From: Candidatus Omnitrophota bacterium
Lineage (GTDB): Bacteria; Omnitrophota; Gorgyraeia; Tantalellales; Tantalellaceae
Direction: 5' to 3'
Assembly: GCA_015231405.1 (NCBI GenBank)
Contig: JADGBR010000027.1
Span: 5,062-37,061, forward strand
DNA: 32,000 nucleotides
Shown piece after piece: positions 4,489 to 22,206 of this stretch; position 1 is the stretch's first letter, and each line of letters opens with the position of its first letter. The notes beneath the pieces were generated by a model. It was not told the DNA's origin, searched no databases, and worked only from the letters and a program-made list of their open reading frames with translations. A program made the translations under genes and the position numbers.

Positions 4489-4504
4489 AGTGGAGGCTCG
4501 GGAT

Positions 4505-4798: not shown

Positions 4799-4816
4799 AA
4801 AAAATTTGCCTGTGGT

Positions 4817-4843: not shown

Positions 4844-4880
4844 TAATAAAAAATATAAGTTCAAAGAAGGAGGTTATGTC

Positions 4881-5354: not shown

Positions 5355-5366
5355 GGAGGAACGAAT

Positions 5367-5854: not shown

Positions 5855-8476
5855 ATGCCAGCCAAGCCAGGGTCCGAACAGATCAACTCAGTTGTAATAA
5901 CCGGAGACGTCGCGAAGGATACTTACATCTATGAAGGGGAGAGGATGACTTCCCGGAAGGATGACTTGAGGGCGACTAAAGTCCATAAGGAGCTTGGCGG
6001 GGCGGAGCTGGTCTATAAGGTCCTGGACGCGCTCAATAGAAAAGCGGTGCTGGGATGGAATGTTACGAACGCCGTCGGATGCCCGGAAGGAAAAGGCGGA
6101 CAATGTATAAGCTCGTACTCTCATTGGGATCCGTTCGAGGATAAAAAAAATAAAAAACAGTCGATATGGCGCATGAGTAAAGCCCTGGGTTACGGATTTG
6201 AGGACTCAGCGCTCGATCCCGCCGTTAAACCGTTCGGCGGGTTGGATGAAGTCAAAAAGAAAGGAACGCCCAAGATCCTCGTAATACAGGACGCCGGATA
6301 CAAATTCAGGGCGCTCGGGAGGAACGATAAGTGGCTGTTGGAAAAAAGCCTGGACTGGGTGGTCATAAAACTTTCAAGGCCGCTTGCCGCGGGAGAACTC
6401 TGGGAAGAACTTATAGGGAATTACGCCGATAAGCTGGTCGTTATAGTTTCCGTAGATGAATTTCGTCTCGAAGATATCAAGATAGCGAAAGGGTTTTCAT
6501 GGGAACAGACGATAGAGGACCTGAGATATGCCCTGGGCACGGAGCCGCGGTACGCTGCGCTGGCTAAATGCGGGCACCTGATCGTCAGTTTTGGCGCGGA
6601 CGGGGCTTTATGGCTTGATAACGGTTCCAGTAATGACACCAAGGCGAAGTTCCTCGGCGATACATCACGCGCGGAGAACGAATGGGCGAACGGTTTGAAA
6701 GGCGAGTCCTTTGGTTATATGTCGACCCTCACGGCGGCGGTTACATACGCATTAATGGATCATTACGGCAAAAAAGGTTCCCCGGATCTCGCGAAAGGGA
6801 TCGAACGCGGGTTATCGGCGATGCGTGATCTTTTGGAGAACGGCCATGGCGGTCTTGTAAAAGACGGAATGCCGTCCGGATTCCCCGTGGAGCGCTTAGC
6901 GGAAAAAATATTAAAAGCTGAACGGTTCCTCTCAAGTATCATCGTGCCTTGGATCCATCCGGACAATATAAAAGATCAGGGCGATTGGATGATAGCCGAA
7001 ATGATGCAGCGGTCGCCTTCGTTCAAAGGGTACGTTTCGCTGCATGGGCTCGCTACGCAGGTGGTCATGTACGGTCAGGGGGTGCTGAAACATATACCTC
7101 ACGCGACTTTCGGGAAATTGACGACCGCGGACCGGAAAGAGATAGAAACGCTTCGCCGGTTAAAAAGGTTCATGACCGAGTATAAAAATGACCCGGACGA
7201 GAAAAAACCTAAAGCTTTCGGCGTTTTTGGCCCCCCCGGCGCCGGTAAATCGTTCGGCGTTAAACAGATAGCGAAAGAAGTGCTTGGCGATGGTAACTGG
7301 CTTGAGTTCAATCTTTCGCAGTTCGAGAGCCTATCCGAACTGTACGGGGCATTCCACCAGGTGCGTGACAGCGTGCTGGGCGGATCGATCCCGGTGGTTT
7401 TCATGGACGAGTTCGATTCCCAGAGATACAAGTGGCTGCAGTACCTAATATCGCCAATGCAGGACGGCATTTTTCAGGAAGGGCAGCTTACGCATACGGT
7501 CGGGAAATGCATTTTCATTTTCGCCGGCGCGACGAGCTATACTTACGAGTCGTTCGGGACTTTTAAGAAAACTCCGGATGGTATCGAAGCTGAGAAGGAT
7601 TTCATCCTGAAAAAAGGCCCTGATTTTAAAAGCCGGCTGGATACCTATTATAACGTGCTCGGCCCGAATAGGAGGATAATCGATCCCGAGACCGGTGTGC
7701 CGGATCCCGCGGATATCTCATGCCCGTTAAGGAGGGCCATTTTCATATCCTCGAAAATAAAATACAGCCCGGGTCTTCCCGCGCCGATAGATCCTGGGCT
7801 TGTGAACGCGCTCCTCAGGATATCGAAATATAAGCACGGCGCGCGCTCTTTGGATAAACTTCTTTGCATCCTCGGGTCGAAAGATAAAACTTCGCTTTTA
7901 AGGTCGTCCCTTCCGGCCGACGCGCAACTGGGGATGTATGTCGATCCAGCCGAATTTAACGCGCTTTTACTTGAGCCTCACAAGATCCTACGCGAACTTC
8001 CTATAGAGGACCTGGCCCGCGCGATCCATACGGGCTGGTCTTTGCTATGCGATAAAAAAGGCTTAAAAAAAGCCGCGCAATACGACAAAGAGTACAACGC
8101 GCTTGACGCTGACGGGAAGGAGGTCAATCGCGCAGCGGCCAGGAGGATACAGGAGATACTGGCTACGGTGAACCTGAAGATCGAAAAACCCGGAGCGCCA
8201 GGGAAAGCCGGCAAAGATCACGACGCGATCATAACCGGGCATCTTGAGCATCATTCGCCGCTTCTTGCGGAGCTTGAGCATAACGGGTGGATGAACCATA
8301 TGTTCAAGTCCGGGTGGAAATACGCGGATATCAGGAACGACGCGAAGAAAGAGCATGATCAGTTGAAACCTTATAACGAACTGCCGGAAGATCAAAAGGA
8401 CAAAGACAGGGATTCGATAAATAATTATCCCGCTGTGCTTAAAACATCCGGGTACAGCATAAACTGGATAAAATGA
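5855..8476 (+). CDS. Multidomain ATPase: N-terminal ribokinase/PfkB-like(?) domain, classical AAA+ ATPase, C-terminal RyR-domain region
   Basis: - AAA+ domain: Walker A FGVFGPPGAGKSFG, Walker B VVFMDEFDS, sensor-1-like IFIFAGATS.
- C-terminus: a clear RyR (PF02026-type) repeat, LAELEHNGWMNHMFKSGWKYADIRNDAKKEHDQLKPYNELPEDQKDKDRDSINNYPAVLKTSGYSI. It is preceded by a degenerate one, LARAIHTGWSLLCDKKG...YNALDADGKEVNRAAARRIQEILATVNLKI.
- N-terminal ~320 aa: a PfkB-like strand/helix pattern (VVITGDVAKDTYIY, GGAELVYKVLDAL, ILVIQDAGY, KLVVIVSVDEFRL, GHLIVSFGADGALWLDNG, KGESFGYMSTLTAAV). This part is a fold guess only. Confidence 0.75.
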   Translation: MPAKPGSEQINSVVITGDVAKDTYIYEGERMTSRKDDLRATKVHKELGGAELVYKVLDALNRKAVLGWNVTNAVGCPEGKGGQCISSYSHWDPFEDKKNKKQSIWRMSKALGYGFEDSALDPAVKPFGGLDEVKKKGTPKILVIQDAGYKFRALGRNDKWLLEKSLDWVVIKLSRPLAAGELWEELIGNYADKLVVIVSVDEFRLEDIKIAKGFSWEQTIEDLRYALGTEPRYAALAKCGHLIVSFGADGALWLDNGSSNDTKAKFLGDTSRAENEWANGLKGESFGYMSTLTAAVTYALMDHYGKKGSPDLAKGIERGLSAMRDLLENGHGGLVKDGMPSGFPVERLAEKILKAERFLSSIIVPWIHPDNIKDQGDWMIAEMMQRSPSFKGYVSLHGLATQVVMYGQGVLKHIPHATFGKLTTADRKEIETLRRLKRFMTEYKNDPDEKKPKAFGVFGPPGAGKSFGVKQIAKEVLGDGNWLEFNLSQFESLSELYGAFHQVRDSVLGGSIPVVFMDEFDSQRYKWLQYLISPMQDGIFQEGQLTHTVGKCIFIFAGATSYTYESFGTFKKTPDGIEAEKDFILKKGPDFKSRLDTYYNVLGPNRRIIDPETGVPDPADISCPLRRAIFISSKIKYSPGLPAPIDPGLVNALLRISKYKHGARSLDKLLCILGSKDKTSLLRSSLPADAQLGMYVDPAEFNALLLEPHKILRELPIEDLARAIHTGWSLLCDKKGLKKAAQYDKEYNALDADGKEVNRAAARRIQEILATVNLKIEKPGAPGKAGKDHDAIITGHLEHHSPLLAELEHNGWMNHMFKSGWKYADIRNDAKKEHDQLKPYNELPEDQKDKDRDSINNYPAVLKTSGYSINWIK

Positions 8477-9417
8477 CGTCCGCAGGCCGTCATTCCGGGC
8501 CCCTCCTAGCGAGGGCGAAGCGATCTATGAAGAGATATAAAACAAGCTCGGGGTTTCAGGGTATTCTATTCCTTTTATTTGGGGCATTGATCCTGAATGG
8601 ATATCCTGTATCCGCATCTGCAGCCGATAGCGTTTATTTTAAACCAAGTGGATCTCAGGTCATCGAAAGAGGCAAAGACGTCGAGTTTAGCTACACCCTT
8701 ACCGTCGACAATGCGGCCGTTGATCCTTCCGAGATCGGGGAAAGTCCCCTGCTATACACTCATGGCGCTAATGAGCTTATACCCGGTCTTGAGAAAGGGC
8801 TTCAGGGGATGAAGGTCGGAGAGAGGAAGAGGATAGTCGTCGGTCCGGAAGAAGGGTTCGGGGTTTTCGATCCCGGGCTTATCGTTGAGGTTCCCTTGAG
8901 AGAACTTCCGAAGGATATAATCCCGGAGATCGGCATCTCAGTTGACATGGAGGAGCCCAACGGCGACAGGGTCCCGGCAACTGTCCGCGAAGTGAAAGAA
9001 AAGACGGTGGTACTCGATCAGAACCACCCGTATGCCGGGAAGACCCTGGCATTCGATGTTACGGTCACTTCGATAAAGCAAGGCGACGTGAATAGAACAT
9101 ATCATATCCCCGGTATCTACTCCAGCCTGGATTATATTAATGAGTCCGGTGACCTTGTCGGCATGGAGGTCCTGATATTCCCGGGAGGTCCGGGTCGGGA
9201 TCATTCCGCGCTCGTCCAAATAGCCGAAGGAGAGGCCCCTTACGCGGCGCTTGTTCCCGTAAAGGTCCACGGTTCCCGCATAAGGTTCACAATGCCCAAG
9301 AACGGCCCGGTAGGCCCCGAACATTATGCCGGTACTATTAAAGATGACGCGCTGGTAATTGAGTATATAAAAGGCGGCGAGGAAATACTTAAACGCGGAA
9401 AAAGTTATTGGGAATGA
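8473..9417 (+). CDS. Exported FKBP-type peptidyl-prolyl cis-trans isomerase with an unrecognised ~110-aa C-terminal domain
   Basis: The FKBP core carries a flap insert (YTHGANELIPGLEKGLQGMKVGERKRIVVGPEEGFG ... LDQNHPYAGKTLAFDVTVTSIK). There is a signal-peptide-like segment, MKRYKTSSGFQGILFLLFGALILNGYPVSASA. The start is either the ATG at 8473 (an ATGA overlap with the upstream stop) or the ATG at 8527. Confidence 0.8.
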   Translation: MTSAGRHSGPLLARAKRSMKRYKTSSGFQGILFLLFGALILNGYPVSASAADSVYFKPSGSQVIERGKDVEFSYTLTVDNAAVDPSEIGESPLLYTHGANELIPGLEKGLQGMKVGERKRIVVGPEEGFGVFDPGLIVEVPLRELPKDIIPEIGISVDMEEPNGDRVPATVREVKEKTVVLDQNHPYAGKTLAFDVTVTSIKQGDVNRTYHIPGIYSSLDYINESGDLVGMEVLIFPGGPGRDHSALVQIAEGEAPYAALVPVKVHGSRIRFTMPKNGPVGPEHYAGTIKDDALVIEYIKGGEEILKRGKSYWE

Positions 9418-9443: not shown

Positions 9444-9728
9444 ATGGCTGATTTCACCGAAGAGATGCTTGAGGAACTATCTAACGCCGCCCATCAGGTC
9501 TGGATGGAGGGGAAGATCAGGGACGGTTGGAAGTATGGCCCTCTGATCGACAAAACTAATAAGATCCACAGCTGTCTCGTCCCTTACGATAAATTGAGCG
9601 AATCGGATAAGGAATCCGACCGCGACATGGTCCGCGGTATCCCGAGAATACTGGCCTTAGCCGGATACGAGATGATACCGAGAAGTGACCGTGGCGCAGA
9701 CCGTCATTGCGAGGAGCGAACGAAGTGA
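9444..9728 (+). CDS. Standalone RyR-domain protein (94 aa)
   Basis: LSNAAHQVWMEGKIRDGWKYGPLIDKTNKIHSCLVPYDKLSESDKESDRDMVRGIPRILALAGYEMI matches the bacterial RyR-domain pattern and the C-terminal repeat of the 873-aa protein. The RBS is GGAG. The last 8 codons and the stop lie inside a family-B repeat. Confidence 0.8.
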   Translation: MADFTEEMLEELSNAAHQVWMEGKIRDGWKYGPLIDKTNKIHSCLVPYDKLSESDKESDRDMVRGIPRILALAGYEMIPRSDRGADRHCEERTK

Positions 9729-9759: not shown

Positions 9760-12700
9760 ATGAACCGCTCGGTCAAGCTATTCCTCTCCTACGCCCGCGG
9801 CGATGATGAGCCGTTCGTCAAACGCCTGTATGGCGACTTGACGAGCGCGGGGTTCGAAGTCTGGTATGACCGCGTGTCTATGCCTTCCCGCCAGCTCACT
9901 TTTCATACAGAGATAAGAGAAGCGGTCAACTCGGCGGACAGGTTACTCCTGGTCGTTGGCCCCAAGGCGGTCGAATCGGATTACGTCGAACAGGAATGGC
10001 GCTGGGCGTTGTTGCAGGATAAATGTTTAAACCCGATCCTTAGGCTTAACGGGCGCGCCGCGGACAAGAGCGTAATAGACGGGTATAAGTTAATACCCGA
10101 AGAACTGGTTATCCTTCATTCGGAGGATTTTCGTGACGACACGAAGTATGACGCGGCGCTCGCGAACCTCAAGAGGCAGCTTTCCGAGCCGATCCCTCCG
10201 TTTGGAAAGCTCGTAGCCGTCCCCGAACTTCCGGCGCATTTCAAAGCCCAGCCTGAAAGGCTCAAGAAATTACGCGAACTATTGCTCATCGACCTGAATA
10301 ACCCAACGGTAGTGACCGGCGCGGCCGCGCGCGTGGGTCTTGAGGGAATGGGCGGCATAGGTAAAAGTGTTCTTGCGTCCGCTCTTGCCCGTAACCCTGA
10401 GATACGCAGGGTCTTTTCCGACGGCATATTTTGGATAGGTTTCGGGCAGAAACCCGATATAGTCTCTCTCCAGCGCAGGATAGTTACCGAACTATGCGGT
10501 GACGCTCTTTTTAACGAGATAGAGATAGGCAAACAGCGGATGACCGATCTACTCAAGAGCCGCGCCGCGCTCATTATTATCGACGACGTCTGGGACAGGA
10601 AACACGCCGACGCGTTCAATGTCCTGGGCCCCAGGTGTAAACTGCTCTTAACGAGCCGTGATTCGGGCCTTGTAACTTCATTCGCCGGCAACGGCTACCA
10701 GGTCCAGCTTCTGACCGAGGCCGAATCGCTTGAACTGTTGGCTACGACATCCGGTTTTACATCTCAAACCTTACCAAAGATAGCCTCCGACATCGTGAAA
10801 GAATGCCAGCGACTTCCCCTGGCCCTCGCCCTTTGCGGCGGCATGGCCCGTAAAGGCCACGCCTGGGAAAATATCCACAAAGCCTTAAAGAACGCCCGCC
10901 TCGAGGTCATAGCCGACAGGCACGAAGCCGAAGAACAGCACACGAGCCTCTGGCGAACGATGGAAGTCAGCGTTCAGGTATTATCAAAAGAAGAGAAAGA
11001 GAGATTTGTCGAGCTTGCCGTCTTCCGTGAAGACATCGAGATCCCTCTGGAGGCGTTGATAACTCTTTGGACGAGGACAGGCGATATGGATGAGTTCTCC
11101 GCGGCGGAGACTATCATTTCATTCAAGGAAAGGTCACTTATCCAGGTCAACACAAGAAAACTTCCCGATGGCACGACACAAAAGATAGCGACAATCCATG
11201 ATCTAATCCGCGATTACGCCGTCCGTCTCGCGAAACAGAAAGAAGGAGGAATAGCGGCTCTTCACGCCCAAATGCTGGACGCTTACAAAACCAAATGCCC
11301 GAAAGCTGAATGGCACACCGGCCCCAATGACGGTTACTATTTCGAGAATTTGAGGCATCATTTCATAGTTGCCGGGGAGATCGATAAATGCGTCGATCTC
11401 TTTACCGGGCTACGGTGGATAGAAGCCAAATGCAAATACGGTTTAACATTCGACCTGGAGAATGACTTTCGCGATCTTCTCCGGGCATTGCCTGAGGCGG
11501 CGGCACAAATAGAAGAAGAGCGAAAACGGGAAATGCCTATCGCCAGATGGGCGGATGAAATGGTCGCGTATTCAAAAGAGTGGAGCCTCCGGGGGGTAAA
11601 AGGGTCGACTGGCCAAAACCCTGAGCCAAAACTTCCCGAACCTGTCCCGGCATGCGGATTATCGACAGACGAAGAGATGAACGCTGAGATAGGCCGTCTC
11701 ATAGCGTCCCCGACGCGGGTTGACAGGGTAAAAGCATTCTCGAACTTTGTCGCTACCCAGCTATATCCTTTAAGTAAATACGCGAGCCACCCCGGTTTTG
11801 TCATCCAGCAGGCGTCCAATTCCGCTCCGGATGGCCCTGTTCATAGGACGGCGTCTGATCTTCTCACGGGGATCTGTATTCCATTTATCTTGCGAGTGTG
11901 GAAAAAACATGACCGTTACGAGCCTAAACAGGCGCTTTTAATGGCGCTCGAGGGGCATAACGATATCATTAGAAGCGTTTCTGTCACTCCGGACCATAGA
12001 AGAGCGGTCTCCGGAGGCAGCGATAAGACGCTCCGGGTCTGGGACCTGGAAAGCGGGGTATGTTTGCATTCTCTTCACGGCCACGACGATATTATAAGGA
12101 GTGCAGCTATCACTCCTGATGGTGTAAGGGCCGTCACGGGAAGTTGGGATAAGACTTTACGGGTATGGGATATCGAGAACGGCGTATGTTCGTATGTTCT
12201 CCGGGGGCATACTGACGATGTGAGGTGCGTCGCGATCACTCCTTGCGGGAAAAAAGCCGTTTCAGGGAGCCGTGACGGGACACTCAGGGTATGGGACCTG
12301 GAAAACGGTTCTTGTATTTCGGCGCTTAAAAAGATCGATGGCCATATTGAAAGCGTCGCCATCACCCCTTGCGGAAGAAAGGCGGTATCGGGAAGCAGCG
12401 ACAAGAAGCTACGGGTATGGGACCTTGAGACCGGAGCCTGTTCGAGCACATTCACGGGACATAACAATAATATAGTTAGCGTTGCCGTTACGCCTGACTG
12501 CAAAGTGGCGGTATCGGGGGATTGGAACGGGGAGATCCGGGTATGGGACATAGAGAAAGGGATATGTTCGCGTTCTCTCAAAGGGCATAGCGATATCGCG
12601 AGAAGCGTCGCCATAACCGCCGACGGTAAGCGGGCGGTTTCAGGAAGCCGCGACAAGACGTTACGGCTATGGGATCTGAGCAATGGCGGGCTTTTACGCG

Positions 12701-13689
12701 TTATCTCCGGTGATAGCGACGATATGAGGAGCATATCTATCGTTCCGGACGGGAGGATGGCCGTCACCGCGGGGAGCGATAAGAAACTTCGGTTATGGGA
12801 CATAGCAAGCGTCTCATTCCGGAAGGCTCCTGATACCCATCGCGATGACGTGAGGGGTGTTTCTATCACTCCTGACGGCAGAACAGCCGTTTCGGGGAGT
12901 AAGGATAAGACGATCAGGGTATGGGACATAGAGAGCGGAACATGCTTACGGACCCTCACCGGGCACAGCGATATAGTAAGATGCGTCGCCGTCGCTCCGG
13001 ATGGGAAGACCGCGTTCTCGGGAGGCGGCGATAGGGTATTACGCGTATGGGACATAGAGAAGGGAGTGTTTTTACGGGCTCTCCCGGGACATACAGGCAG
13101 CGTGAAATGTATTTCGTTCTCTCCCTGCGGGAAAAAGGCGATATCGGCATGCGGTGATTCCACTATAAGGATATGGGACATAGAGAACTGGGTGTGTTTA
13201 CGCGTGCTTGAAGGGCATAGCGATGATGTTAGAAGCGTTTCGATCACTACTTCCGGGAAACATGCCGTCTCGGGCAGTAAAGATAAGACTATCAGGGTCT
13301 GGGATATAGAGAGCGGGGCCTGTCTCCGCGTGATCGAAGCCCATACGGACATTGTAAGAAGCGTCGCCATTACTCCTGACGGTCGAAGAGCCGTTTCCGG
13401 GAGCAGTGACAAGACGCTCAGGGTATGGGACATAGAAAGCGGATCATGCATCCGCGTCATTGAAGGGCACAGCGATTATGTCATGAACGTCGCTGTTACA
13501 TCCGACGGAAGGAAGGCTGTCTCTATAGGCTGGGATGAAACGGTACGCCTGTGGGACATAGAGACCGGCAGGTGCCTGTCGATCTTCAGCTTCCCGGAAC
13601 CGGCGACCGCCCTGGCATTGAAGCCCGATGATAGCGGAGCCATCGTCGGGACACATAACGGACAACTTCTTTTTCTTGATTATAAATGA
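9760..13689 (+). CDS. TIR - NB-ARC (STAND NTPase) - 14x WD40 protein (Apaf-1/NLR-like)
   Basis: - TIR: KLFLSYARGDDEPFVKRLYGDLTSAGFEVWYDRVSM...LLLVVGPKAVESDYVEQEW.
- NB-ARC: P-loop GMGGIGKS, kinase-2 LIIIDDVWD, LLLTSRD, GLPL-like RLPLALALCGG, MHD-like TIHDLIRDYA.
- WD40: fourteen 42-aa repeats of the type GH-x-D-x-[VI]-R-S-V-A-I-T-P-D-G-x-x-A-V-S-G-S-x-D-K-T-L-R-V-W-D. Confidence 0.92.
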   Translation: MNRSVKLFLSYARGDDEPFVKRLYGDLTSAGFEVWYDRVSMPSRQLTFHTEIREAVNSADRLLLVVGPKAVESDYVEQEWRWALLQDKCLNPILRLNGRAADKSVIDGYKLIPEELVILHSEDFRDDTKYDAALANLKRQLSEPIPPFGKLVAVPELPAHFKAQPERLKKLRELLLIDLNNPTVVTGAAARVGLEGMGGIGKSVLASALARNPEIRRVFSDGIFWIGFGQKPDIVSLQRRIVTELCGDALFNEIEIGKQRMTDLLKSRAALIIIDDVWDRKHADAFNVLGPRCKLLLTSRDSGLVTSFAGNGYQVQLLTEAESLELLATTSGFTSQTLPKIASDIVKECQRLPLALALCGGMARKGHAWENIHKALKNARLEVIADRHEAEEQHTSLWRTMEVSVQVLSKEEKERFVELAVFREDIEIPLEALITLWTRTGDMDEFSAAETIISFKERSLIQVNTRKLPDGTTQKIATIHDLIRDYAVRLAKQKEGGIAALHAQMLDAYKTKCPKAEWHTGPNDGYYFENLRHHFIVAGEIDKCVDLFTGLRWIEAKCKYGLTFDLENDFRDLLRALPEAAAQIEEERKREMPIARWADEMVAYSKEWSLRGVKGSTGQNPEPKLPEPVPACGLSTDEEMNAEIGRLIASPTRVDRVKAFSNFVATQLYPLSKYASHPGFVIQQASNSAPDGPVHRTASDLLTGICIPFILRVWKKHDRYEPKQALLMALEGHNDIIRSVSVTPDHRRAVSGGSDKTLRVWDLESGVCLHSLHGHDDIIRSAAITPDGVRAVTGSWDKTLRVWDIENGVCSYVLRGHTDDVRCVAITPCGKKAVSGSRDGTLRVWDLENGSCISALKKIDGHIESVAITPCGRKAVSGSSDKKLRVWDLETGACSSTFTGHNNNIVSVAVTPDCKVAVSGDWNGEIRVWDIEKGICSRSLKGHSDIARSVAITADGKRAVSGSRDKTLRLWDLSNGGLLRVISGDSDDMRSISIVPDGRMAVTAGSDKKLRLWDIASVSFRKAPDTHRDDVRGVSITPDGRTAVSGSKDKTIRVWDIESGTCLRTLTGHSDIVRCVAVAPDGKTAFSGGGDRVLRVWDIEKGVFLRALPGHTGSVKCISFSPCGKKAISACGDSTIRIWDIENWVCLRVLEGHSDDVRSVSITTSGKHAVSGSKDKTIRVWDIESGACLRVIEAHTDIVRSVAITPDGRRAVSGSSDKTLRVWDIESGSCIRVIEGHSDYVMNVAVTSDGRKAVSIGWDETVRLWDIETGRCLSIFSFPEPATALALKPDDSGAIVGTHNGQLLFLDYK
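11947..13686 (+). repeat. Tandem 126-nt (42-codon) WD40 coding repeats, 14 units
   Basis: The period is visible at both DNA and protein level, for example GATAAGAC(G/T)(C/A)T(C/A)(C/A)GGGT(C/A)TGGGA recurs. Units 8, 11 and 12 are especially similar to one another. Confidence 0.9.
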
Positions 13690-14686: not shown

Positions 14687-17600
14687 TTAGCTCCAGGGTA
14701 TATCCACGGGAAGGGAAGGCTGGTCTTTCCAAATGGTCAATTGATCGAGTTCGGGTGTGTCTTCGCGGTTGTTCAGGGCCTTGTAGAGAAGCGTAACGAA
14801 GTTGAGGTCCCGAGCCGATATACGGGGACGAAGATGGTCGAGGAAGTCGCCGATATCCCAGAATTGAGTGATATTGGCTTTGTCTCCAGGAGGGTCTCCC
14901 TGTCTAAGAGCCCGGATCCGGCCTATGTATGGCTCCATGGGCTCGTTTTGGAGTAACGCCGCGGCGGATCTCACGAAGAGTATCCGTTGACTTGTGATAT
15001 CGTGTCCCGAAGCCAGTTTGATAGTCCAGGCGCGTGATAACAGCTCACGGGCTTCGGCGTATCCTTCCTTCATGACGAGCACTATCGAGAGGTTGTTCAT
15101 CCGGTGCGCTATTTTTGGGTCGGAGGGTTCACGGGAGGACTCGTCATGGCTCAATGCTTCGCGTAATAGCCTCTCGGCTTCGTCGAGCCGGCCGATTTTC
15201 CGGGCGCTTAAGGCTTCGTTATTCAGGGCTACCGCCCGGCCCCAGCTTGCTTCGGTCGTCGACATTTTTATGTCTCCGGGGACATCGGCACTATCAGATA
15301 TGCCGAGGATCGTGGAATTAAGCTGGGAAGGATCGCCGGTCTCGAGATATTTGGCAAGGTCAGGGTGAAATCTGTATTCCTGCTTGAACCATGTAGCAAG
15401 GGTCATACAGTAAATGATCTGGCGTAGCGGTCCGAAGAGCCGGGATCCCGTTAAGGACCTTTGGATGGTGGGGACGATGTGTTTTTGGAACGCGTTATTG
15501 AGGCGGTCTATCGATCCTTCCGGAGCGATTCGATGAGTGCGCGGTAAATGCCATTCCCAGAACACATCAAGAGGCGCCTTTGTGACGGACGCGTGATTCT
15601 CTCCGGGAGTGATGAGGTCGGATAATCTGCCTTCCGGAGTACCTGTGTATACCTGAGCACAGGCCGGAGAGATAAAAATATCGATCGGGAACTCATGTGG
15701 ATCCGTTCCGGCGAAGGTCGCAGCCGGGTTAACATCGCTCCTGAAGGCCTTTCCGGCGGGATTGTCCCCGGAAAGCGCGGCCGAGACGAATTCGCTTAAA
15801 ACCTGTCCCTGTTCGGCCAGCATTGACCCGAGTTTTGATCCGCGAAGCTGCGGAGGCATTTCCGAATCGGACGCCGCCCATTGATCTTCCTCGTTCACCG
15901 AGATAGCGGCCAGAAATATATCCACAAGTGACCGTGTGTCTTTTTGTCTATTACCGCTCCAGTCCTTATCCGATCCGGTATCAATGATAAAATTCCAGTT
16001 CAGTTTATCGCTGTCCTGTATCGATACGCCGGTTATCATAGGCGGATGCCAGGGTTCCGGGTCTTTCGCGGTCAGTTCATCGGAAATTTCCCGCGCGTGT
16101 GTGGGCGAAGAGAGTACGGCCGGGTGAGTATCGGAGAATTTAGCCCGGGCTTCGAGGATCCGGAGTTTTCTGCGGAGGCGCCGTTCGGGCTGTTTTTTTA
16201 GTTCGTCGGTACCCCACTGGGGCCTATTCACCAGGGTCAATTTCGCGTATTGGCGTTTAGCTTCGGTCAGTTTATGGACGCTAAGGAGGAATTCAGAGAA
16301 ACGTTCAAGCACCGTTTCCTTGAACGGATGCTCGTCAGGAAATACGGACAAACGTTTTATGGCGTCCTCAAAATAACGTTCGGCGCCGTTAAGGTCGCCT
16401 TTTTTAGTCAACAGTTCCGCTAATTGGGTGCGGCAGATGATGGCTAATTGAGGTTTGACGGTGTGTTTCCCGTCCTCGGTCGAAAGTTCCACGGCTTTCC
16501 GGAGCAGTTTTTCACCTTCAACAAGGTCTCCTGCCGATGTGACCAATATCGACAGATTGTTCAGCGGTTTAGCGAAATCGCTTCGCCTGACGGTGGCGTG
16601 ATGCGACTCATAGATGGCGATGGCGCGGCGGTAGCAGTTCTCCGCTTCGTTCTTTTCGCCCAGATCACTATGAGCCAGCCCGAGGTAGTTGAGCGCGCTT
16701 GCTGCGTTCGGGGTGTCTTTCCCGTCAGAGCTCTCGAATATCTCGAACGCGCGGCGGAAAGCCTCGAGGGCTTCTTTTGGCCGTTTGAGCGCGCGAAGCG
16801 ACTCTCCGCGGTTGATGTGCTTGTTGGCGGTATCGGTGGTCCCTTCAAAACCAGGTGAACGGGAGATAACATTTAGTGTTGACTCTTCCATGGCAAGAGA
16901 TAGAACGTGGAGGCCTTTGCCGAACAAAAGAGTGCCGATGGAGGTCATTAGCGCCGGGTTAGACGGCAGTTTGTCGTCGGAAACGAAGGATCCGATCAGG
17001 AACTCGGCGTGAGGGCGGAGCACATCCCAGACGGCCCATGTCCTGGGACTTTCCGATGTTTCCTCCGGGGCGTATTTCGAGACGAGCGCCTGTACGCGTC
17101 CGTGCCAGAGTGGCAGGAGCTCCGAACTCATATGGTTCCTCATTATACGTTGTTCCATCCGATGGATGCTGAAAAACCCGTCGCCGCGGGATATCAGCGA
17201 ATATCGTCCGAGTTCTGCCAGGGCGTCGGGAACGGTCTGGCCGGTCCTGGTCTCGCCGGACCCTTCGCACCATAATGTCACGAGCGCCAACGTTTCGTTA
17301 GGGCAGGCCTCGAACATCGCTATCGGGATCGGGTCGGGAGCGAGAAATGCCGATCCCCTTAGTATTGCCTTGGCTTCGGGGGAAAGCCTGTCAAAAGAGA
17401 GGAAAAAAGTTGTGGCAACGGTCTTGATCAGGGCTTTGCGGGCCGCTTTAGCCTCGGGCGTTGAGGGCCCTCTGTCATCCTTGTCAAGTTCGGTCTCGTA
17501 TTCGATAGCGGTGTGATCGTGATAGGCTAGCAGTCGTTCAAAATGACGTTCAAAATCGTCCAGATACGCCGCGAATCCCATATGATGATGTTGCATATAG

Positions 17601-18718
17601 GCCGTGGCGTGGGTTAGGGCGAGCGGAAGATTGCCGAGACGTTCTGCGAGCGTTCTTGCCTGTAGCTTATCTCCCTCTTTTGGCATCCGCCACGCGGCCG
17701 TGGATTCGACAAGGAGCGCTACGGCATTTTCAGTCGAAAGAACGTCAAGCGGCAGTGGGCGGACACCGCGGCCCCACTCCGTTACGCGCGATGTTATCAG
17801 TACATGCCCGCCGCGGAGTTTGGCGACCAGAGATTTAACCGCTCTCACGCTTTCGTCGGTATCCACATTATCAATGATGAGAAGCCAGCCTTTATTCTGC
17901 TGAAGCCACCGTATGACCGCGTCACGCTGCTCGTCCTGGTTTATAGACCTATATTCGGGAAGGTCCAGACAATCACCTGGCCGGCAGAGAGAGGCTAGAT
18001 TGGAATCAAGGTCTTCGGGCCTGTTGGCTGAGACAAATAGGCACGCGGTGAAGTCATTCTGATGTCTCCAGGCGTATTCTATAGCGAGACGGGTTTTGCC
18101 TATTCCGCAGAGGCCGTGGATAATATGCGGTTGGAGCAATGCGGCTGAGCCGTGTTTCCGGAGCTCACGGTCGATCTCCGCGAGCGTTTCTTCCCGGCCT
18201 TTGAATAACTCGGCCAGAGAGCTGAACGGGAGATTCCAAGGGATACGTCCGGGGTTTATGAGCTTATGTACCTGCCGGCAGACGTCGAGCAGCGTAGCGT
18301 TCAGCGACGGTTCTTGGAGTTTTTCGAGAGGCGTAGCCGTAGCGGCGGCGGCCTGTATATCTGTGATCGGTCGAAGTTCCGGGGGGGCGAGAGGTCCGTC
18401 AAAAGTCCCGGAAAGCGGTATCCATACGACGGTCAGGCCGTCCTTAGCCGCCTCGATAATGCGCGGCAGCTCCTCACGCATGATAAAATCTGACGCGAGG
18501 AAGTTGGGAGATATAAGGAGTAAAGCGACGCGGGCGTGCCTGACGGCTTCGTCTATCTCAATGCGCCAGCGGTCTCCGGTCTCGATCCGCCGGTCGTCCC
18601 AGTAATCAAGCCTTCCGTTTCGGATATCGGGCGCGAAATGTTCGCGCAGCTTGTCCAGCCACGCGGCGTCCTTGTGGCTGTAGCTTACGAACACTTGTGT
18701 GCGGTAGGAAATAGGCAT
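14687..18718 (-). CDS. TIR - NB-ARC (STAND NTPase) - TPR protein with an internal unrecognised ~250-aa domain
   Basis: - TIR: VFVSYSHKDAAWLDKLREHF...ALLLISPNFLASDFIMREEL.
- NB-ARC: P-loop GLCGIGKT, Walker B LLIIDNVD, VLITSR, LGNLPLAL, MHD-equivalent SIHRMEQ.
- TPR: TPR_12-like repeats (ALNYLGLAHSDLGEKNEAENCYRRAIAIYE and others), then an unknown domain, then further TPR-like repeats.
- Start: the track ORF extends to 19042, but that 108-aa extension overlaps the divergent gene. The ATG at 18718 (MPISYRTQVFVSYSHKD) is the likely start. Confidence 0.88.
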   Translation of the reverse strand: MPISYRTQVFVSYSHKDAAWLDKLREHFAPDIRNGRLDYWDDRRIETGDRWRIEIDEAVRHARVALLLISPNFLASDFIMREELPRIIEAAKDGLTVVWIPLSGTFDGPLAPPELRPITDIQAAAATATPLEKLQEPSLNATLLDVCRQVHKLINPGRIPWNLPFSSLAELFKGREETLAEIDRELRKHGSAALLQPHIIHGLCGIGKTRLAIEYAWRHQNDFTACLFVSANRPEDLDSNLASLCRPGDCLDLPEYRSINQDEQRDAVIRWLQQNKGWLLIIDNVDTDESVRAVKSLVAKLRGGHVLITSRVTEWGRGVRPLPLDVLSTENAVALLVESTAAWRMPKEGDKLQARTLAERLGNLPLALTHATAYMQHHHMGFAAYLDDFERHFERLLAYHDHTAIEYETELDKDDRGPSTPEAKAARKALIKTVATTFFLSFDRLSPEAKAILRGSAFLAPDPIPIAMFEACPNETLALVTLWCEGSGETRTGQTVPDALAELGRYSLISRGDGFFSIHRMEQRIMRNHMSSELLPLWHGRVQALVSKYAPEETSESPRTWAVWDVLRPHAEFLIGSFVSDDKLPSNPALMTSIGTLLFGKGLHVLSLAMEESTLNVISRSPGFEGTTDTANKHINRGESLRALKRPKEALEAFRRAFEIFESSDGKDTPNAASALNYLGLAHSDLGEKNEAENCYRRAIAIYESHHATVRRSDFAKPLNNLSILVTSAGDLVEGEKLLRKAVELSTEDGKHTVKPQLAIICRTQLAELLTKKGDLNGAERYFEDAIKRLSVFPDEHPFKETVLERFSEFLLSVHKLTEAKRQYAKLTLVNRPQWGTDELKKQPERRLRRKLRILEARAKFSDTHPAVLSSPTHAREISDELTAKDPEPWHPPMITGVSIQDSDKLNWNFIIDTGSDKDWSGNRQKDTRSLVDIFLAAISVNEEDQWAASDSEMPPQLRGSKLGSMLAEQGQVLSEFVSAALSGDNPAGKAFRSDVNPAATFAGTDPHEFPIDIFISPACAQVYTGTPEGRLSDLITPGENHASVTKAPLDVFWEWHLPRTHRIAPEGSIDRLNNAFQKHIVPTIQRSLTGSRLFGPLRQIIYCMTLATWFKQEYRFHPDLAKYLETGDPSQLNSTILGISDSADVPGDIKMSTTEASWGRAVALNNEALSARKIGRLDEAERLLREALSHDESSREPSDPKIAHRMNNLSIVLVMKEGYAEARELLSRAWTIKLASGHDITSQRILFVRSAAALLQNEPMEPYIGRIRALRQGDPPGDKANITQFWDIGDFLDHLRPRISARDLNFVTLLYKALNNREDTPELDQLTIWKDQPSLPVDIPWS

Positions 18719-18859
18719 ATATTGCGATAAATATACCACCGTAGGGAATGCGGGGTCAACAAGATACTCCTCTATCCTGTATATTATCGTTGATTCGTTC
18801 GGGAAATATGCTATTTTAGTGTTGTTGAGATGCTGCTTAAAGCCATCATAAGGAGTGAT

Positions 18860-20095
18860 ATGGGAATAAGGCCGAAACATATTGTTATAATTGCCGTGAT
18901 ATTGGTCTTCGCCGCCTTTGCCGGGTACGCTGGCATGGTGTGGAGCTATATGTACCGCGGGCACATGCTGGTCCAGAAGGGAGACTACGATGGGGTTGTG
19001 AAGGCGCTTTCCAAGGCTGTCAGGCTGGCGCCGAATAACCATTTAACGTACTGGGGCAGAGGTGACGCTTTACTTGCGCAAGGAATGTATATGGAGGCGG
19101 CCCGGGATTATGAAAAGGTCCTTGAGTTATATAGATCTTTCAGGCCATCGGTAAAAAAGAACTTTCTCGATAAAATAGCGCTTTCAAAAACCGGCGGTAA
19201 CGGTATCGTAAGGGAATATTATCCCGGTGGAGAGGTAAGAAGGGAGTTGACGTTCGTCAATGGCCGGCAGAACGGGATATCCAGGATGTATTTTCCGTCG
19301 GGAAAGGTCATGTCCGAGGTAGAGTTCAGGGATAATGCGATCGACGGTGCTTTCGAAAGATATTTTGAGGACGGCAAAACTGAAATGGAAGGTAGTTTTC
19401 TCGCCGGGAAAATGAACGGCGCGGCTAAAATGTACTATCCGGGAGGCGTATTGAAGTCCGAAGGGAATTTCGATGCCGGAGAGATGGAAGGGGTCTTCAA
19501 AGCTTATTACAGGAACGGTAACCTAAGAAGCGTATCGGATTATAAGGACGATCTCCCGAACGGCACACACAAGTCATATTATCAAAGCGGAGCTTTTAAG
19601 GGTGAAATGAGCGCCAGGAACGGCAACGCCGACGGCGTATCTTCCGAATATCACGAGAACGGCGAACTTGTTTATAAATGGAATTATTCGGACGGCGCGT
19701 GGGACCCGGCGAATATCGTCGTCTTCGATAAGAAGGAGAAGCTTGTAACGACTTATTTTAAAAGCGGCGGCATTGAATCGGAAATACCGTATATAGGCGG
19801 CAAGATCGAGGGTAAGGTCATGGGATACTACGAGGGTGGGGTGCTTAGAGACGAGTCTCTGTATAAGGAAGGCAGGCCCGACGGCGTCGGGATGACATAC
19901 GATGAGGACGGGAAGTTATACAGTAAGTCCTTCTATCGGGGCGGTGTTTGTGACGGTGAATGGTTTTATTATTCGGAAACCGGAACGGCCAAGTCAAAGG
20001 TATCGTTCAAGAACGGCAAATTCGTGAAACTTGAAACATTTGATCCTTCGGGCAGGATAACTAAGACAATTAAGCCTCCGGAGAATATTCAGTAA
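18860..20095 (+). CDS. Membrane-anchored TPR + MORN-variant (YwqK-like) repeat protein
   Basis: There is one N-terminal TM helix (IVIIAVILVFAAFAGYAGMVW) and a TPR (GDYDGVVKALSKAVRLAPNNHLTYWGRGDALLAQGMYMEAARDYEKVLEL). About ten repeats of the G-x-x-x-x-Y-Y-x-x-G type follow (REYYPGGEVRRELTFVNGRQNGISRMYFPSGKV...). The ATG at 18860 is preferred, with AAGGAG 4-5 nt upstream. The track start is 18830. Confidence 0.75.
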   Translation: MGIRPKHIVIIAVILVFAAFAGYAGMVWSYMYRGHMLVQKGDYDGVVKALSKAVRLAPNNHLTYWGRGDALLAQGMYMEAARDYEKVLELYRSFRPSVKKNFLDKIALSKTGGNGIVREYYPGGEVRRELTFVNGRQNGISRMYFPSGKVMSEVEFRDNAIDGAFERYFEDGKTEMEGSFLAGKMNGAAKMYYPGGVLKSEGNFDAGEMEGVFKAYYRNGNLRSVSDYKDDLPNGTHKSYYQSGAFKGEMSARNGNADGVSSEYHENGELVYKWNYSDGAWDPANIVVFDKKEKLVTTYFKSGGIESEIPYIGGKIEGKVMGYYEGGVLRDESLYKEGRPDGVGMTYDEDGKLYSKSFYRGGVCDGEWFYYSETGTAKSKVSFKNGKFVKLETFDPSGRITKTIKPPENIQ

Positions 20096-22205: not shown

Positions 22206-22206
22206 A

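Follow-up and report, generated by a model that had tools for sequence, protein, structure and literature searches.

A widespread PfkB-fold, AAA+ and RyR-domain protein family that may receive ADPR signals in bacterial TIR-based conflict systems

What would a bacterium do with one polypeptide that joins a sugar-kinase fold, an AAA+ ATPase and domains of the ryanodine receptor (RyR) type? The question is raised by an 873-aa open reading frame (ORF) with an ATG start, located at 5855..8476 on the + strand of the window, the 32,000-nucleotide stretch of Candidatus Omnitrophota DNA that was analysed here; a sequence-only reading had placed it at the same coordinates. The ORF is a genuine gene, not a reading frame open by chance: NCBI holds an identical protein under the title 'MAG: AAA family ATPase [Candidatus Omnitrophica bacterium]', and the searches yielded over 600 full-length homologs. 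The full-length AF2 model had a pLDDT of 88.1 and a pTM of 0.86, and the parts of the gene were delimited as follows.

5855..8476, + strand: complete gene, PfkB-like domain, AAA+ ATPase and two-repeat RyR module in 873 aa (ORF, homologs, full-length AF2 model)
5882..6925, + strand: ribokinase/PfkB-fold domain with beta-lid, aa ~10-357 (AF2/Foldseek, hhalign, column statistics)
6926..7129, + strand: helical linker from the PfkB-like domain to the AAA+ core, aa ~358-425 (secondary structure of the model)
7130..7669, + strand: AAA+ alpha/beta core, aa ~426-605 (Pfam AAA, motif conservation, structural matches)
7229-7252, + strand: Walker A GPPGAGKS, aa 459-466, with K465 (motif)
7394-7417, + strand: Walker B VVFMDEFDS (DEFD), aa 514-522, with D518 and E519 (motif)
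7670..7939, + strand: AAA+ helical lid, aa ~606-695, with sensor-2 R664 (model; R664 in 60/60)
7946..8185, + strand: RyR repeat 1, degenerate, aa ~698-777 (6uhi alignment over both repeats)
8213..8473, + strand: RyR repeat 2, canonical PF02026, aa ~787-873 (Pfam RyR, E 3.9e-16)

The presence of all three modules in the one ORF was confirmed. The sequence-only reading had not recognised this architecture, and the literature search found no paper on the PfkB-like, AAA+ and RyR combination, whose function is unassigned. The architecture is not rare, however, comprising ~1,170 clusters at 50% identity and occurring in at least 249 species genomes from at least 15 phyla (MAGs and genomes). An architecture both common and already annotated had been named as a refutation; what the survey found was one half of this, a common architecture without an annotated function. 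A search of 2.9 million viral contigs in IMG/VR returned one weak match, to the AAA core only, and the family was absent there; it is cellular, not viral.

The AAA+ assignment, made from the strings GPPGAGKS and VVFMDEFDS, held: both motifs are present and Pfam AAA (PF00004 type) matched above its cut-off (26.1 bits versus 21.2). The core also carries sensor-1 T560 and a putative Arg finger, R594, and K465, D518, E519, T560, R594 and R664 were each conserved in 60/60. Judged from these residues, the AAA+ motor is catalytically intact. A conserved helix and beta-hairpin are inserted in the core at aa 527-548, and at pore loop 1 the family has [D/E]-L-[IVMY]-G, with an invariant Leu where an aromatic residue is expected. 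Structural matches of this part in a Foldseek search with the full-length model were ClpC1, ClpB and FtsH, and the preceding helical linker has conserved W378, G407 and P415-H416. Membership in bpMoxR (PF20030) was considered and rejected (24.7 bits, below the cut-off of 27; no recurrent vWA neighbour among the neighbour clusters).

At the C-terminus, the RyR assignment was strong. Pfam RyR matched aa 793-870 with 59.5 bits against a cut-off of 27.4, and the family profile matched PDB entries of RyR R12 at E 1e-37. The description of the module as tandem holds for the structure, since Foldseek matched the full-length model to 6uhi, a crystal structure of R12 with both repeats, along 182/185 columns (TM 0.59), but repeat 2 alone is detectable by sequence, the signal of repeat 1 being faint (phmmer domain i-E 0.43). 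Repeat 1 keeps an H..W motif (H725 and an aromatic residue at 728), has an invariant Asn758 where repeat 2 has the catalytic/ligand Asp, and lacks the phosphate-binding His loop.

The pocket of repeat 2 is formed by H809, W812, R827, H834, K850 and D851. These residues correspond, in order, to H75, W78, (R94), H100, (K116) and D117 of the anti-Thoeris protein RyDEP, which is gp78 of mycobacteriophage DyoEdafos (PMC13232231), and to H129, W132, K147, H154, K170 and D171 of the anti-Thoeris protein RyR Tad, which is gp68 of Pectobacterium phage vB_PatP_CB1 (10.64898/2026.06.04.730250). BLASTP aligned repeat 2 with gp78 without gaps (E 1e-6). Close homologs conserve the pocket residues in 58-60/60 and diverse ones in 59-66/68; position 816, the equivalent of RyR1 Arg885, is Met in the window protein and Arg or Lys in the family. 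With these residues the two phage proteins bind or cleave 2'/3' cADPR. Through the equivalent positions, RyDEP binds 3'cADPR (PMC13232231), RyR Tad binds gcADPR with a K_D of 43 nM (10.64898/2026.06.04.730250) and animal RyR R12 binds adenine nucleotides (PMC12627627; PMC13642953). The earlier suggestion of ADPR or cADPR isomers as ligands was apt, given that work from 2026 demonstrated binding of these compounds by phage RyR domains (PMC13232231; 10.64898/2026.06.04.730250). Because most RyDEP homologs with the same pocket residues do not cleave (PMC13232231), pocket conservation cannot tell binding from hydrolysis.

Three further genes of the window encode RyR or TIR domains.

9444..9728, + strand: stand-alone 94-aa RyR-domain protein (Pfam RyR, E 1e-18)
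9760..13689, + strand: TIR-NB-ARC-WD40 STAND protein, 1309 aa (NB-ARC, WD40 and TIR_2 matches)
14687..19042, - strand: TIR-NB-ARC-TPR STAND protein, up to 1451 aa (TIR_2 E 6e-14, NB-ARC, TPR)

The 94-aa RyR gene lies two genes downstream of the 873-aa gene on the same strand, and its product has the full tetrad (H17, W20, H42, D59). In tblastn this product matched phage RyR proteins, including one of vB_PatP_CB1, the RyR Tad phage; by its sequence it is a host-encoded look-alike of RyDEP and RyR Tad. The 1309-aa TIR-STAND gene begins 32 nt downstream of this small gene, and its TIR_2 domain (aa 8-97, nt 9781-10050, E 4.4e-18) has a conserved Glu at the catalytic position. In the 1451-aa protein the TIR domain covers aa ~114-206 (nt 18425-18703). 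Hsp20 and FKBP genes flank the 873-aa gene in the window, and they recurred in 0/80 related loci.

TIR domains were found near the family gene in 33 of 80 genome loci, and all ten neighbour TIRs sampled were Pfam TIR_2 above the cut-off. They peak directly downstream: the +1 gene encoded a TIR protein in 15/73 loci, in 14 of them on the same strand, and TIR frequency was 11% near the family gene versus 2.6% far from it (Fisher p 1.8e-5). The link is frequent and not obligatory, since 45/78 loci, some on short contigs, had no TIR within +/-8 kb and 24/78 had no close same-strand neighbour at all. The TIR partners bring modules of their own (NB-ARC, WD40, TPR, Laminin_G, FGE-sulfatase), and some match ThsB and SAVED_TIR models. 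Other recurrent neighbours were SLOG(-SLATT) genes (24/80 loci), additional RyR genes (18/80) and STAND NTPases; the neighbours are conflict-system genes, not genes of sugar or nucleoside catabolism. Partners vary from locus to locus, and no single partner gene is conserved across the loci. Fusions to TIR or STAND modules occur but are rare. P0047 carries the full architecture plus HTH and a C-terminal TIR_2, P0204 joins PfkB-like-AAA to NACHT-TPR, and one further member (L050) bears a SLOG motif at its C-terminal end. In four Planctomycetota loci an ORF of its own, overlapping the rest of the gene, encodes the RyR module. Among PADLOC defence-system models, none matched the 873-aa protein beyond P-loop noise.

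The N-terminal domain required structural comparison. Its PfkB fold, proposed earlier from the letters only, was borne out by the AF2 model of the domain (pLDDT 87.9), by Foldseek and by hhalign, although no Pfam, NCBIfam or PDB sequence matched: Pfam and NCBIfam gave no match for aa 1-430 at E<=1, and the domain profile found no PDB sequence at E<=10. Foldseek returned 144 PDB matches at E<=1e-3, and the best 50 of these were all PfkB kinases (prob 1.0, TM(target) 0.45-0.61, E down to 6.3e-11). By hhalign, 290 columns were collinear with PfkB (P 3.2e-4, versus 0.1-0.49 for nine controls). Sequence-only annotation consequently overlooks ~40% of the protein, this domain being the part missed.

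Of the two PfkB signatures (PROSITE PS00583 and PS00584), the first is recognisable and the catalytic end of the second is not. The sugar-binding Asp is kept (D22 for RbsK Asp16; 56/60 and 26/27), as is the signature 1 GG dipeptide (G48-G49 for RbsK G41-G42; 60/60 and 26-27/27). The string KGES does occur at aa 282-285, where it had been taken as the GAGD equivalent with Asp replaced by Glu, but this equation failed. In the profile-profile alignment E284 lines up with RbsK D249, at which PfkB signature 2 begins, and the catalytic D255 lines up with S290 (Ser/Thr/Ala in the family); E284 is itself variable (K22 E19 T6 G3 of 60). An active variant using Glu is therefore unlikely. Alignment of the signature-2 segment is of moderate reliability, and none of three candidate registers yields a conserved Asp. 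The anion-hole Gly254 of RbsK falls on variable position 289; in the NxxE motif N187 falls on variable position 201 and Glu190 on invariant R204; and Lys43 falls on A50. An insertion of ~14 residues (269-282) bears invariant D269 and E274, which belong to an invariant polar set that also includes D18, D22, D146, R152, K172, R204, W216-E217, R324 and H331. No Pfam model covers the domain, which probably represents a pseudokinase lineage that has diverged far within the ribokinase fold. With catalytic Asp, NxxE Glu and Lys43 replaced, the results favour the other option raised earlier, a ligand-binding domain without kinase activity, and a ligand-binding pseudokinase is its most likely nature.

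Since RyR domains like its tail have been shown to bind immune signals elsewhere and TIR genes adjoin it, the family probably belongs to bacterial antiviral immunity, as a component not described before. More specifically, homology, gene neighbourhood and structural modelling suggest, with about an even chance of being right, that it supplies the ADPR-signal-receiving AAA+ ATPase of TIR-based nucleotide-signalling conflict systems. A co-encoded TIR protein, usually fused to its own sensor, would on being triggered convert NAD+ into an ADPR-derived product, as expected from TIR biochemistry. By homology to RyDEP, RyR Tad and R12, the two-repeat RyR module would bind this nucleotide in the pocket of repeat 2, where H809 and D851 would touch the terminal ribose, W812 would stack on the adenine, and R827, H834 and K850 would hold the phosphates. 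Closure of the RyR pair like a clamshell, as in R12, could then act through the AAA+ lid and switch oligomerisation or ATP hydrolysis. The N-terminal domain most likely binds the same or a second ribose-containing ligand and does not phosphorylate a sugar; its kinase residues are lost, while the ribose-binding Asp, the GG dipeptide and invariant Arg, Lys, Asp and Glu residues are kept. Because no single partner is conserved, the output is a guess: the AAA+ ring might remodel a target, or might control the co-encoded SLOG-SLATT pores or TIR NADases. As animal R12 binds plain ADP and ATP, the ligand could also be an ordinary adenine nucleotide and not an immune signal.

The same pocket could serve the opposite purpose. 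The RyR module might hydrolyse or sequester TIR-made cADPR isomers, thereby setting a threshold, ending signalling and preventing autoimmunity, while the ribokinase-like domain binds or phosphorylates the ribose that becomes free in linear ADPR and the small gene at 9444-9728 does the same job. We consider such an off-switch unlikely. The RyDEP catalytic dyad (His809/Asp851) and binding residues are conserved, in the window a stand-alone RyDEP-like gene immediately precedes one of the TIR-STAND genes, and the N-terminal domain has anomeric-OH kinases (HldA) among its best matches by fold. RyDEP, moreover, is a glycosidase whose gene lies between PRPP-synthetase-like and nicotinamide/nicotinate ribosyltransferase genes (PMC13232231); by analogy, phage RyDEP sits in the NARP1 NAD+-rebuilding operon beside an ADPR pyrophosphokinase, but no Namat-like gene recurs in the family loci. 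Most RyDEP homologs with these residues are non-enzymes, phosphorylation is doubtful when neither the catalytic Asp of PfkB kinases nor the Glu of NxxE nor Lys43 is conserved, and a sink would have no need of an AAA+ motor of 500 aa whose active site is conserved throughout.

The protein might instead stand upstream as a sensing NTPase, its pseudokinase domain monitoring a ribose-containing metabolite and its RyR pair monitoring ADP/ATP as in RyR1, so that a change caused by infection leads to AAA+ assembly and to recruitment or activation of neighbouring effectors (TIR NADase, SLOG-SLATT pore, STAND). RY12 of RyR1 selectively binds ADP and has been proposed as an ATP/ADP-ratio sensor (PMC13642953), and NTP-dependent conflict systems follow a series of sensor, NTPase and adaptor/effector with variable neighbouring effectors (PMC7159879); partners do differ between loci, and in P0047 TIR is part of the polypeptide itself, at the C-terminal effector position. 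This arrangement too is improbable, because the TIR partners usually bear their own sensor and NTPase modules, which would make a second upstream sensor redundant, and because all six pocket residues match the cADPR-binding phage proteins, including the contacts to the second ribose. Activity of the N-terminal domain as a PfkB-type kinase of sugars or nucleosides, with Glu for the catalytic Asp, in a metabolic kinase coupled to a chaperone-like AAA+, is very improbable: the genuine lidded fold, the retained sugar-binding Asp and GG, the acidic E274 in the loop preceding the GAGD-equivalent helix and the flanking Hsp20 and FKBP genes would suit it, but the catalytic positions are replaced or variable as described, those two genes do not recur, and the neighbours belong to conflict systems.

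Receipt of an ADPR-derived signal by an AAA+ ATPase is thus the reading that we carry forward. A bolder form of it, held tentatively and at less than even confidence, is that bacteria have in the RyR (R12) module a receptor of their own for cyclic ADP-ribose signals from TIR proteins, and that this family joins the receptor to an AAA+ motor and to a second ligand site of ribokinase origin. It would constitute a new Thoeris-like receptor/effector class, the host-side source of phage RyDEP and RyR Tad, and a prokaryotic precedent for the long-debated link between cADPR and the ryanodine receptor in animals. Nothing was known of what RyR domains do in microbes before 2025-2026, when R12 was found to bind adenine nucleotides and two phage RyR proteins to cleave or sequester Thoeris cADPR signals (PMC12627627; PMC13232231; 10.64898/2026.06.04.730250). 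The RyDEP and RyR Tad papers cover viral proteins, whereas cellular RyR-domain proteins are far more numerous, and the present family offers a concrete candidate role for the latter, having the same pocket, an intact AAA+ motor and adjoining producers of TIR signals. If true, TIR immunity would gain a new receptor domain and a new type of effector or regulator, and the origin of the phage RyR sponges would be explained. There would also be a simple bacterial model for how an R12 ligand signal passes to a neighbouring machine, of relevance to dantrolene and ADP on RyR1.

Compared with PfkB kinases (PF00294; RbsK 1RKD, Pfk-2 3CQD, LacC 2AWD, HldA 4E8W), the N-terminal domain shares the alpha/beta fold with a four-stranded lid over ~290 collinear residues and the conserved sugar-site Asp16 and GG equivalents. 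It differs in its 10-15% identity, its loss of GAGD, NxxE and Lys43, its insertion at 269-282 and its constant position N-terminal to an AAA+ module.

SLOG/SLATT conflict systems were reportedly described by Burroughs et al. in 2015. NTPase-centred conflict systems of the STAND/AAA+ kind with variable effectors (PMC7159879; Kaur, Burroughs, Iyer & Aravind 2020, which mentions neither RyR nor a ribokinase-like domain) resemble the family in having an NTPase core flanked by sensor or adaptor domains, neighbours drawn from TIR, SLOG, SLATT, DUF4062-STAND and RelA/SpoT modules, a rare domain (here RyR) in several adjacent proteins, and occasional Rosetta-stone fusions. The AAA+ module here, in contrast, resembles bpMoxR weakly, below the Pfam cut-off, and is without the vWA/beta-propeller partner pattern.

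In Thoeris, ThsA, with a SLOG or Macro sensor and a SIR2 or TM effector, is paired with the TIR protein ThsB. Similarly, a TIR gene stands beside a protein with a candidate ADPR-signal-binding domain in part of the loci, SLOG genes (the ThsA sensor fold) are frequent neighbours, and some neighbour TIRs match ThsB models. Unlike ThsA, the 873-aa protein has no SIR2, Macro or caspase domain and its body is PfkB-like and AAA+, so that RyR would be the receptor; most of the TIR partners are large proteins of the STAND or repeat type and not minimal ThsB, and PADLOC does not place the protein. A systematic survey of TIR systems mentions no ATPase, kinase or RyR component (10.64898/2025.12.03.692087).

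With animal RyR R12/RY12, the module shares the two-repeat horseshoe of 6uhi and the residues W812 (Trp881/995), R827 (Arg896) and, in the family, R/K816 (Arg885). Nucleotide in the R12 cleft closes the clamshell (PMC12627627; PMC13642953). In those receptors R12 controls a Ca2+ channel, and its ligands are ADP/ATP and dantrolene, whereas here it is attached to an AAA+ ATPase, with a degenerate repeat 1 and Met at the Arg885 position in the window protein. The phage proteins RyDEP and RyR Tad share PF02026 and a gap-free pocket in which all published binding and catalytic residues (H/W/H/D plus Lys/Arg) are kept, and the two-repeat unit of the 873-aa protein mimics their homodimer, although as an intramolecular pair with a complete pocket in one repeat only. 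Theirs are viral homodimers of 138-183 aa by which signals of the host are destroyed or sequestered; here the domain is the C-terminal module of an 873-aa cellular AAA+ protein, encoded near TIR genes on the host side.

The ORF at 5855..8476 (+) starts with ATG and encodes 873 aa, in exact agreement with the sequence-only reading. Since NCBI holds an identical protein ('MAG: AAA family ATPase [Candidatus Omnitrophica bacterium]') and more than 600 full-length homologs were retrieved (~860-980 aa, 38-67% identity), the gene is real and conserved. Pfam recognized AAA at aa 457-522, above the cut-off, and one RyR domain at aa 793-870 (E 3.9e-16). PADLOC, Pfam and NCBIfam scans left aa 1-430 without a match, and none of the PADLOC models of known defence systems matched the protein. 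The N-terminal domain as sole query gave 1,169 clusters at 50% identity (707 of them with E<=1e-10), nearly all consisting of 850-960 aa proteins with the domain at the N-terminus. Relatives are encoded in at least 249 species-representative genomes from Omnitrophota, Planctomycetota, Acidobacteriota, Chloroflexota, Bacteroidota, Verrucomicrobiota, Proteobacteria, Desulfobacterota, Myxococcota, Actinomycetota (including the cultured Intrasporangium oryzae), Chlorobi, Gemmatimonadota and others. We rejected viral and anti-defence origins for the family, as 2.9 million viral contigs yielded a single weak match, to the AAA core only. The cluster count, genome spread and near-absence from viruses show the PfkB-like-AAA+-RyR architecture to be common, stable and cellular in origin. 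Database names of its members are just 'AAA family ATPase', 'RyR domain' or 'hypothetical'.

From 60 homologs, AlphaFold2 modelled aa 1-420 confidently, with a pLDDT of 87.9 and a pTM of 0.88. Foldseek comparison of this model with the PDB gave 144 matches at E<=1e-3, and every one of the best 50 was a ribokinase/PfkB-family kinase (probability 1.0, E to 6.3e-11, identity 10-15%). Among the matches listed were Listeria tagatose-6-P kinase/Pfk (3q1y/3ie7), HldA, LacC, FruK, pseudouridine kinase, Pfk-2, M. jannaschii nucleoside kinase, ribokinase and ketohexokinase, and the full-length model (pLDDT 88.1, pTM 0.86) recovered the same PfkB matches. This kinship is nearly invisible to sequence searches: a profile of 27 diverse N-domains had zero matches to PDB sequences even at E<=10, and hhalign against four ribokinases produced a 43-column N-terminal match only (E 0.068). 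The four-ribokinase profile was replaced by a broader one covering eight PfkB kinases of solved structure; two of the sequences are 100% identical to 1GQT/1RKD and 3CQD, and six come from printed alignments. With this profile, hhalign aligned 290 collinear columns, residues 7-356 with 1-308 of E. coli ribokinase (RbsK), at a score of 37.6 (P = 3.2e-4), versus 14.3 for a reversed profile and 16.6-19.8 for eight block-shuffled ones (P 0.1-0.49). Foldseek and hhalign agree, and the PfkB fold proposed from sequence therefore rests on two independent lines.

Residues were mapped in the hhalign register, and their columns were scored across 60 close and 27 diverse homologs. G17 (RbsK G11) is kept, as is D22 (56/60 close, 26/27 diverse), the equivalent of RbsK Asp16, which is a ligand of ribose O2/O3. 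The PfkB GG dipeptide is invariant (G48-G49), and the RbsK Lys43 position is A50. In the NxxE motif, Asn187 corresponds to variable position 201 and Glu190 to invariant R204; the anion-hole Gly254 falls on variable position 289, and the catalytic Asp255 on S290 (Ser/Thr/Ala in the family). The string KGES had been equated with the GAGD motif, but E284 pairs with RbsK D249, the opening residue of PfkB signature 2, while D255 pairs with S290. Because the E284 position is also variable (K22 E19 T6 G3 ...), the idea of an active Asp-to-Glu variant fails. A register placing 'DTSRAENEW' on 'DTIAAGDTF', with E274 at the anion-hole Gly, was dropped in favor of G287-S290 on GAGD, which fits both the profile-profile alignment and the helix start in the model. 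The register across 269-290 is only moderately reliable, and a conserved Asp occurs in none of those considered. A different set of polar residues is near-invariant, namely D18, D22, D146, R152, K172, R204, W216-E217, D269, E274 (57/60 close, 27/27 diverse), R324 and H331. Together with the loss of the catalytic residues, this is the pattern expected for a conserved ligand pocket in which phosphotransfer chemistry would have been lost.

The AAA+ assignment of the sequence-only reading was borne out by Pfam and by the residues themselves: Walker A K465, Walker B D518/E519, sensor-1 T560, sensor-2 R664 and a putative Arg finger, R594 (within KGPDFxSRLD), are each present in 60/60 homologs. A strongly conserved helix and beta-hairpin (aa 527-548) precedes sensor-1, and pore-loop 1 shows [D/E]-L-[IVMY]-G, with no aromatic residue. 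The structural neighbors of this part of the model were ClpC1, ClpB and FtsH. Judged by its motifs, the motor looks catalytically competent. MoxR membership was rejected (score below cut-off, vWA partner absent).

Searched against the PDB, the family profile hit RyR repeat domains (E 1e-37), and the alignment of the full-length model with 6uhi, a two-repeat R12 structure, spans 182/185 columns. As this alignment extends across both repeats, the C-terminus is a tandem RyR pair, as had been proposed, though of the two only the second is canonical. H725 and an aromatic residue at 728 persist in repeat 1, the phosphate-His loop is missing, and an invariant Asn758 stands where repeat 2 has Asp; with repeat 1 thus degenerate, each chain has one complete pocket. 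In RyR R12, the inter-repeat cleft binds AMP-PCP/ADP, with Trp880/881 stacking and Lys884/Arg885, Arg895/896 and Arg1018/1019 holding the ligand (PMC12627627). The equivalent of RyR1 Arg885 is Met816 here versus Arg/Lys in the family. RyDEP (PF02026) is a phage glycosidase in which H75 and D117 open 2'/3' cADPR, with the adenine stacked on W78 and the phosphates held by H100; its homologs are mostly non-catalytic, nanomolar sponges (PMC13232231). The phage protein RyR Tad binds 1''-3' gcADPR with a K_D of 43 nM via H129/W132, K147/H154 and K170/D171 (10.64898/2026.06.04.730250). BLASTP aligned RyDEP (DyoEdafos gp78, MN234187.1) with repeat 2 gap-free (E 1e-6), matching H75, W78, H100 and D117 to H809, W812, H834 and D851, and equal spacing matches RyR Tad K147 to R827 and K170 to K850. 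At the level of these residues, repeat 2 thus matches experimentally defined cADPR-binding pockets.

Conservation of pocket residues in 60 close homologs and 68 diverse full-length genome homologs (the latter counts alignment-based).
H809: 60/60 close, 66/68 diverse
W812: 60/60 close, 64/68 diverse
H834: 58/60 close, 59/68 diverse (+6 Asn)
D851: 59/60 close, 62/68 diverse

On the same strand, the gene is followed in order by an FKBP-like ORF, a 94-aa RyR gene and a TIR-NB-ARC-WD40 gene.

Features of the window around the gene.
4490-5717 (+): MerR-family regulator, then two Hsp20/alpha-crystallin genes, immediately 5' of the 873-aa ORF
8473-9417 (+): FKBP-type PPIase ORF, 314 aa, signal-peptide-like N-terminus, ~150-aa C-terminal part without Pfam match
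9444-9728 (+): stand-alone RyR-domain protein, 94 aa, full RyDEP/RyR Tad tetrad H17/W20/H42/D59
14687-19042 (-): TIR-NB-ARC-TPR gene
18830-20095 (+): TPR/MORN ORF, overlapping the 5' end of the TIR-NB-ARC-TPR ORF (-) by ~213 nt
21273-24570 (+): MoxR-like AAA_5 ATPase (310 aa), then immediately a 787-aa ORF without Pfam match

The 94-aa RyR gene lies directly 5' of the TIR-STAND gene, whose product matched TIR_2 at E 4.4e-18, and tblastn with the 94-aa protein matched RyR proteins of 199 phage records, among them vB_PatP_CB1, the phage of RyR Tad. As a host gene product, the 94-aa protein might buffer or hydrolyze the signal on the host side. A Glu shared by 49/51 of the TIR sequences collected is retained in both window TIRs. 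The true start codon of the TIR-NB-ARC-TPR gene is probably further downstream, because its TIR domain begins only at aa ~107-114 of the ORF. The AAA_5 ATPase and the 787-aa ORF may be a MoxR-plus-partner pair, a further conflict or chaperone-type module of the island. GC content dips to 0.41 at 27001-28000 (~0.51 in the window), over a histidine-kinase gene at 26646-27770 (-).

The MerR-Hsp20-Hsp20 set looks like a heat-shock module and is not conserved beside family members. The start ATG of the FKBP-like ORF overlaps the stop TGA of the 873-aa ORF (ATGA), and FKBP12 partners RyR in animals. None of the Hsp20, Hsp20 and FKBP genes recurred in any of 80 related loci, so a chaperone or stress role was rejected and the FKBP adjacency taken as probably coincidental; an FKBP-RyR partnership was rejected also because the FKBP looks exported. 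These neighbors are probably incidental.

ORFs from the 80 genome loci (+/-8 kb flanks) were clustered, and TIR domains, sought with an HMM that was seeded by the TIR domain of the window and then iterated, were present in 33/80. All ten neighbor TIRs sampled (10/10) matched Pfam TIR_2 above the cut-off, with NB-ARC, TPR, Laminin_G_3, FGE-sulfatase or LVIVD as fusion partners. An SLOG-type Rossmannoid protein (TGHR...LAEGADR...WDG...GGTxE) occurred in 24/80 loci, often 2-8 nt 3' of the homolog or overlapping it, and its long forms carry C-terminal SLATT/DUF4231 2TM effector domains. Additional RyR-domain ORFs (stand-alone, TrkA_N-RyR or RelA/SpoT-SLOG-RyR) were found in 18/80 loci, and large DUF4062/NB-ARC-TPR STAND proteins in 27/78. 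The gene immediately 3' (n=73) was TIR in 15 cases (14 co-directional), SLOG in 10 and RyR in 6. In compact operons such as those of the related loci L032, L054 and L037, the TIR gene starts 25-77 nt after the homolog; L015 is the locus of the cultured Intrasporangium oryzae. TIR frequency was 11% at <=2 genes away versus 2.6% at >=4 genes away (Fisher p = 1.8e-5), a non-random association. A few operon partners match ThsB and SAVED_TIR models.

Neighbor ORFs by locus (L-numbers, the related loci).
Compact SLOG-like ORFs: L077:7037-7627, L047:5589-6149, L075:10406-10921, L078:3047-3595, 20 more
Multi-domain RyR neighbors: L007:1807-4359, L031:4837-7398, L018:3448-6021, L021:2829-4601, others
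Split RyR ORFs, Planctomycetota: L059:3487-4047, L068:10298-10855, L069:5806-6360, L074:1835-2446

The compact SLOG-like family (~180-200 aa) is often translationally coupled to the homolog and had only sub-threshold Pfam matches (Nuc_deoxyrib_tr, DprA, YAcAr, cpYpsA). The RelA/SpoT-SLOG(LSDAT)-RyR neighbors are ~850 aa and the TrkA_N-RyR neighbors ~590 aa. In most multi-domain RyR neighbors, Asn replaces the phosphate-binding His ('K.NP.LVPW'), suggesting that they form a RyR subfamily whose ligand differs.

The family is seldom fused to other domains, and the fusions that occur confirm the neighborhood link: protein P0047 (1322 aa) has the full architecture plus HTH and a C-terminal TIR_2, P0204 (1638 aa) joins PfkB-like-AAA+ to NACHT-TPR, and a member in L050 (7911-11234) ends in an SLOG motif. 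P0242 (1262 aa) carries an unassigned N-terminal extension of 460 aa. In the four Planctomycetota loci, the RyR module is its own ~185-200-aa ORF abutting or overlapping (<=4 nt) the end of the PfkB-like-AAA+ ORF. This looks like a natural gene split, and the RyR module is therefore a separable unit.

The best-supported reading, for which belief and doubt are about balanced, is that the protein serves TIR-based conflict systems as an AAA+ ATPase that responds to a signal. We infer its ligand, direction of information flow and output as follows. The RyR pair would receive an ADPR-derived nucleotide produced by the partner TIR, closure of the pair would control the active AAA+ motor, and the ribokinase-derived pseudokinase domain would be a second ribose-ligand site. 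As output, the protein might remodel a target, or control SLOG-SLATT or TIR effectors. The RyDEP-type dyad is intact, as a signal sink or off-switch acting through it would need, and we regard that role as unlikely. It is likewise doubtful that the protein is an upstream metabolic or ADP sensor activating neighboring effectors; R12 is an ADP sensor in RyR1 (PMC13642953). An active kinase in the N-domain, an option of the sequence-only reading, is highly improbable given the lost catalytic residues.

The architecture, which the sequence-only reading did not recognize, is not rare, but it was undescribed in a literature search of RyR+AAA+, RyR+SLOG/SLATT and Thoeris+ribokinase whose coverage did not extend to Burroughs et al. 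2015 (NAR). Kaur et al. 2020 (PMC7159879) mention neither RyR nor ribokinase, and a systematic TIR-system survey (10.64898/2025.12.03.692087) mentions no ATPase or kinase component. Both phage RyR preprints (PMC13232231; 10.64898/2026.06.04.730250) treat viral proteins only. Prokaryotic RY12 domains, occurring 'in a variety of domain architectures', have been noted as candidate nucleotide sensors, PfkB-like-AAA+-RyR not among them (PMC13642953). The protein genuinely belongs to both AAA+ and PF02026. Compared with PfkB kinases, it has the fold but fails the family catalytic-motif and sequence-model tests, and should therefore be named 'ribokinase-fold, PfkB-like', not PfkB kinase. It is not a member of Thoeris ThsA, having neither ThsA domains nor a model match. 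In its proposed way of working, as a signal-responsive ATPase, it is closest to the ThsA-type receptor-effector. Nucleotide-signalling immunity is already known; the proposed receptor/motor architecture is what would be new here.
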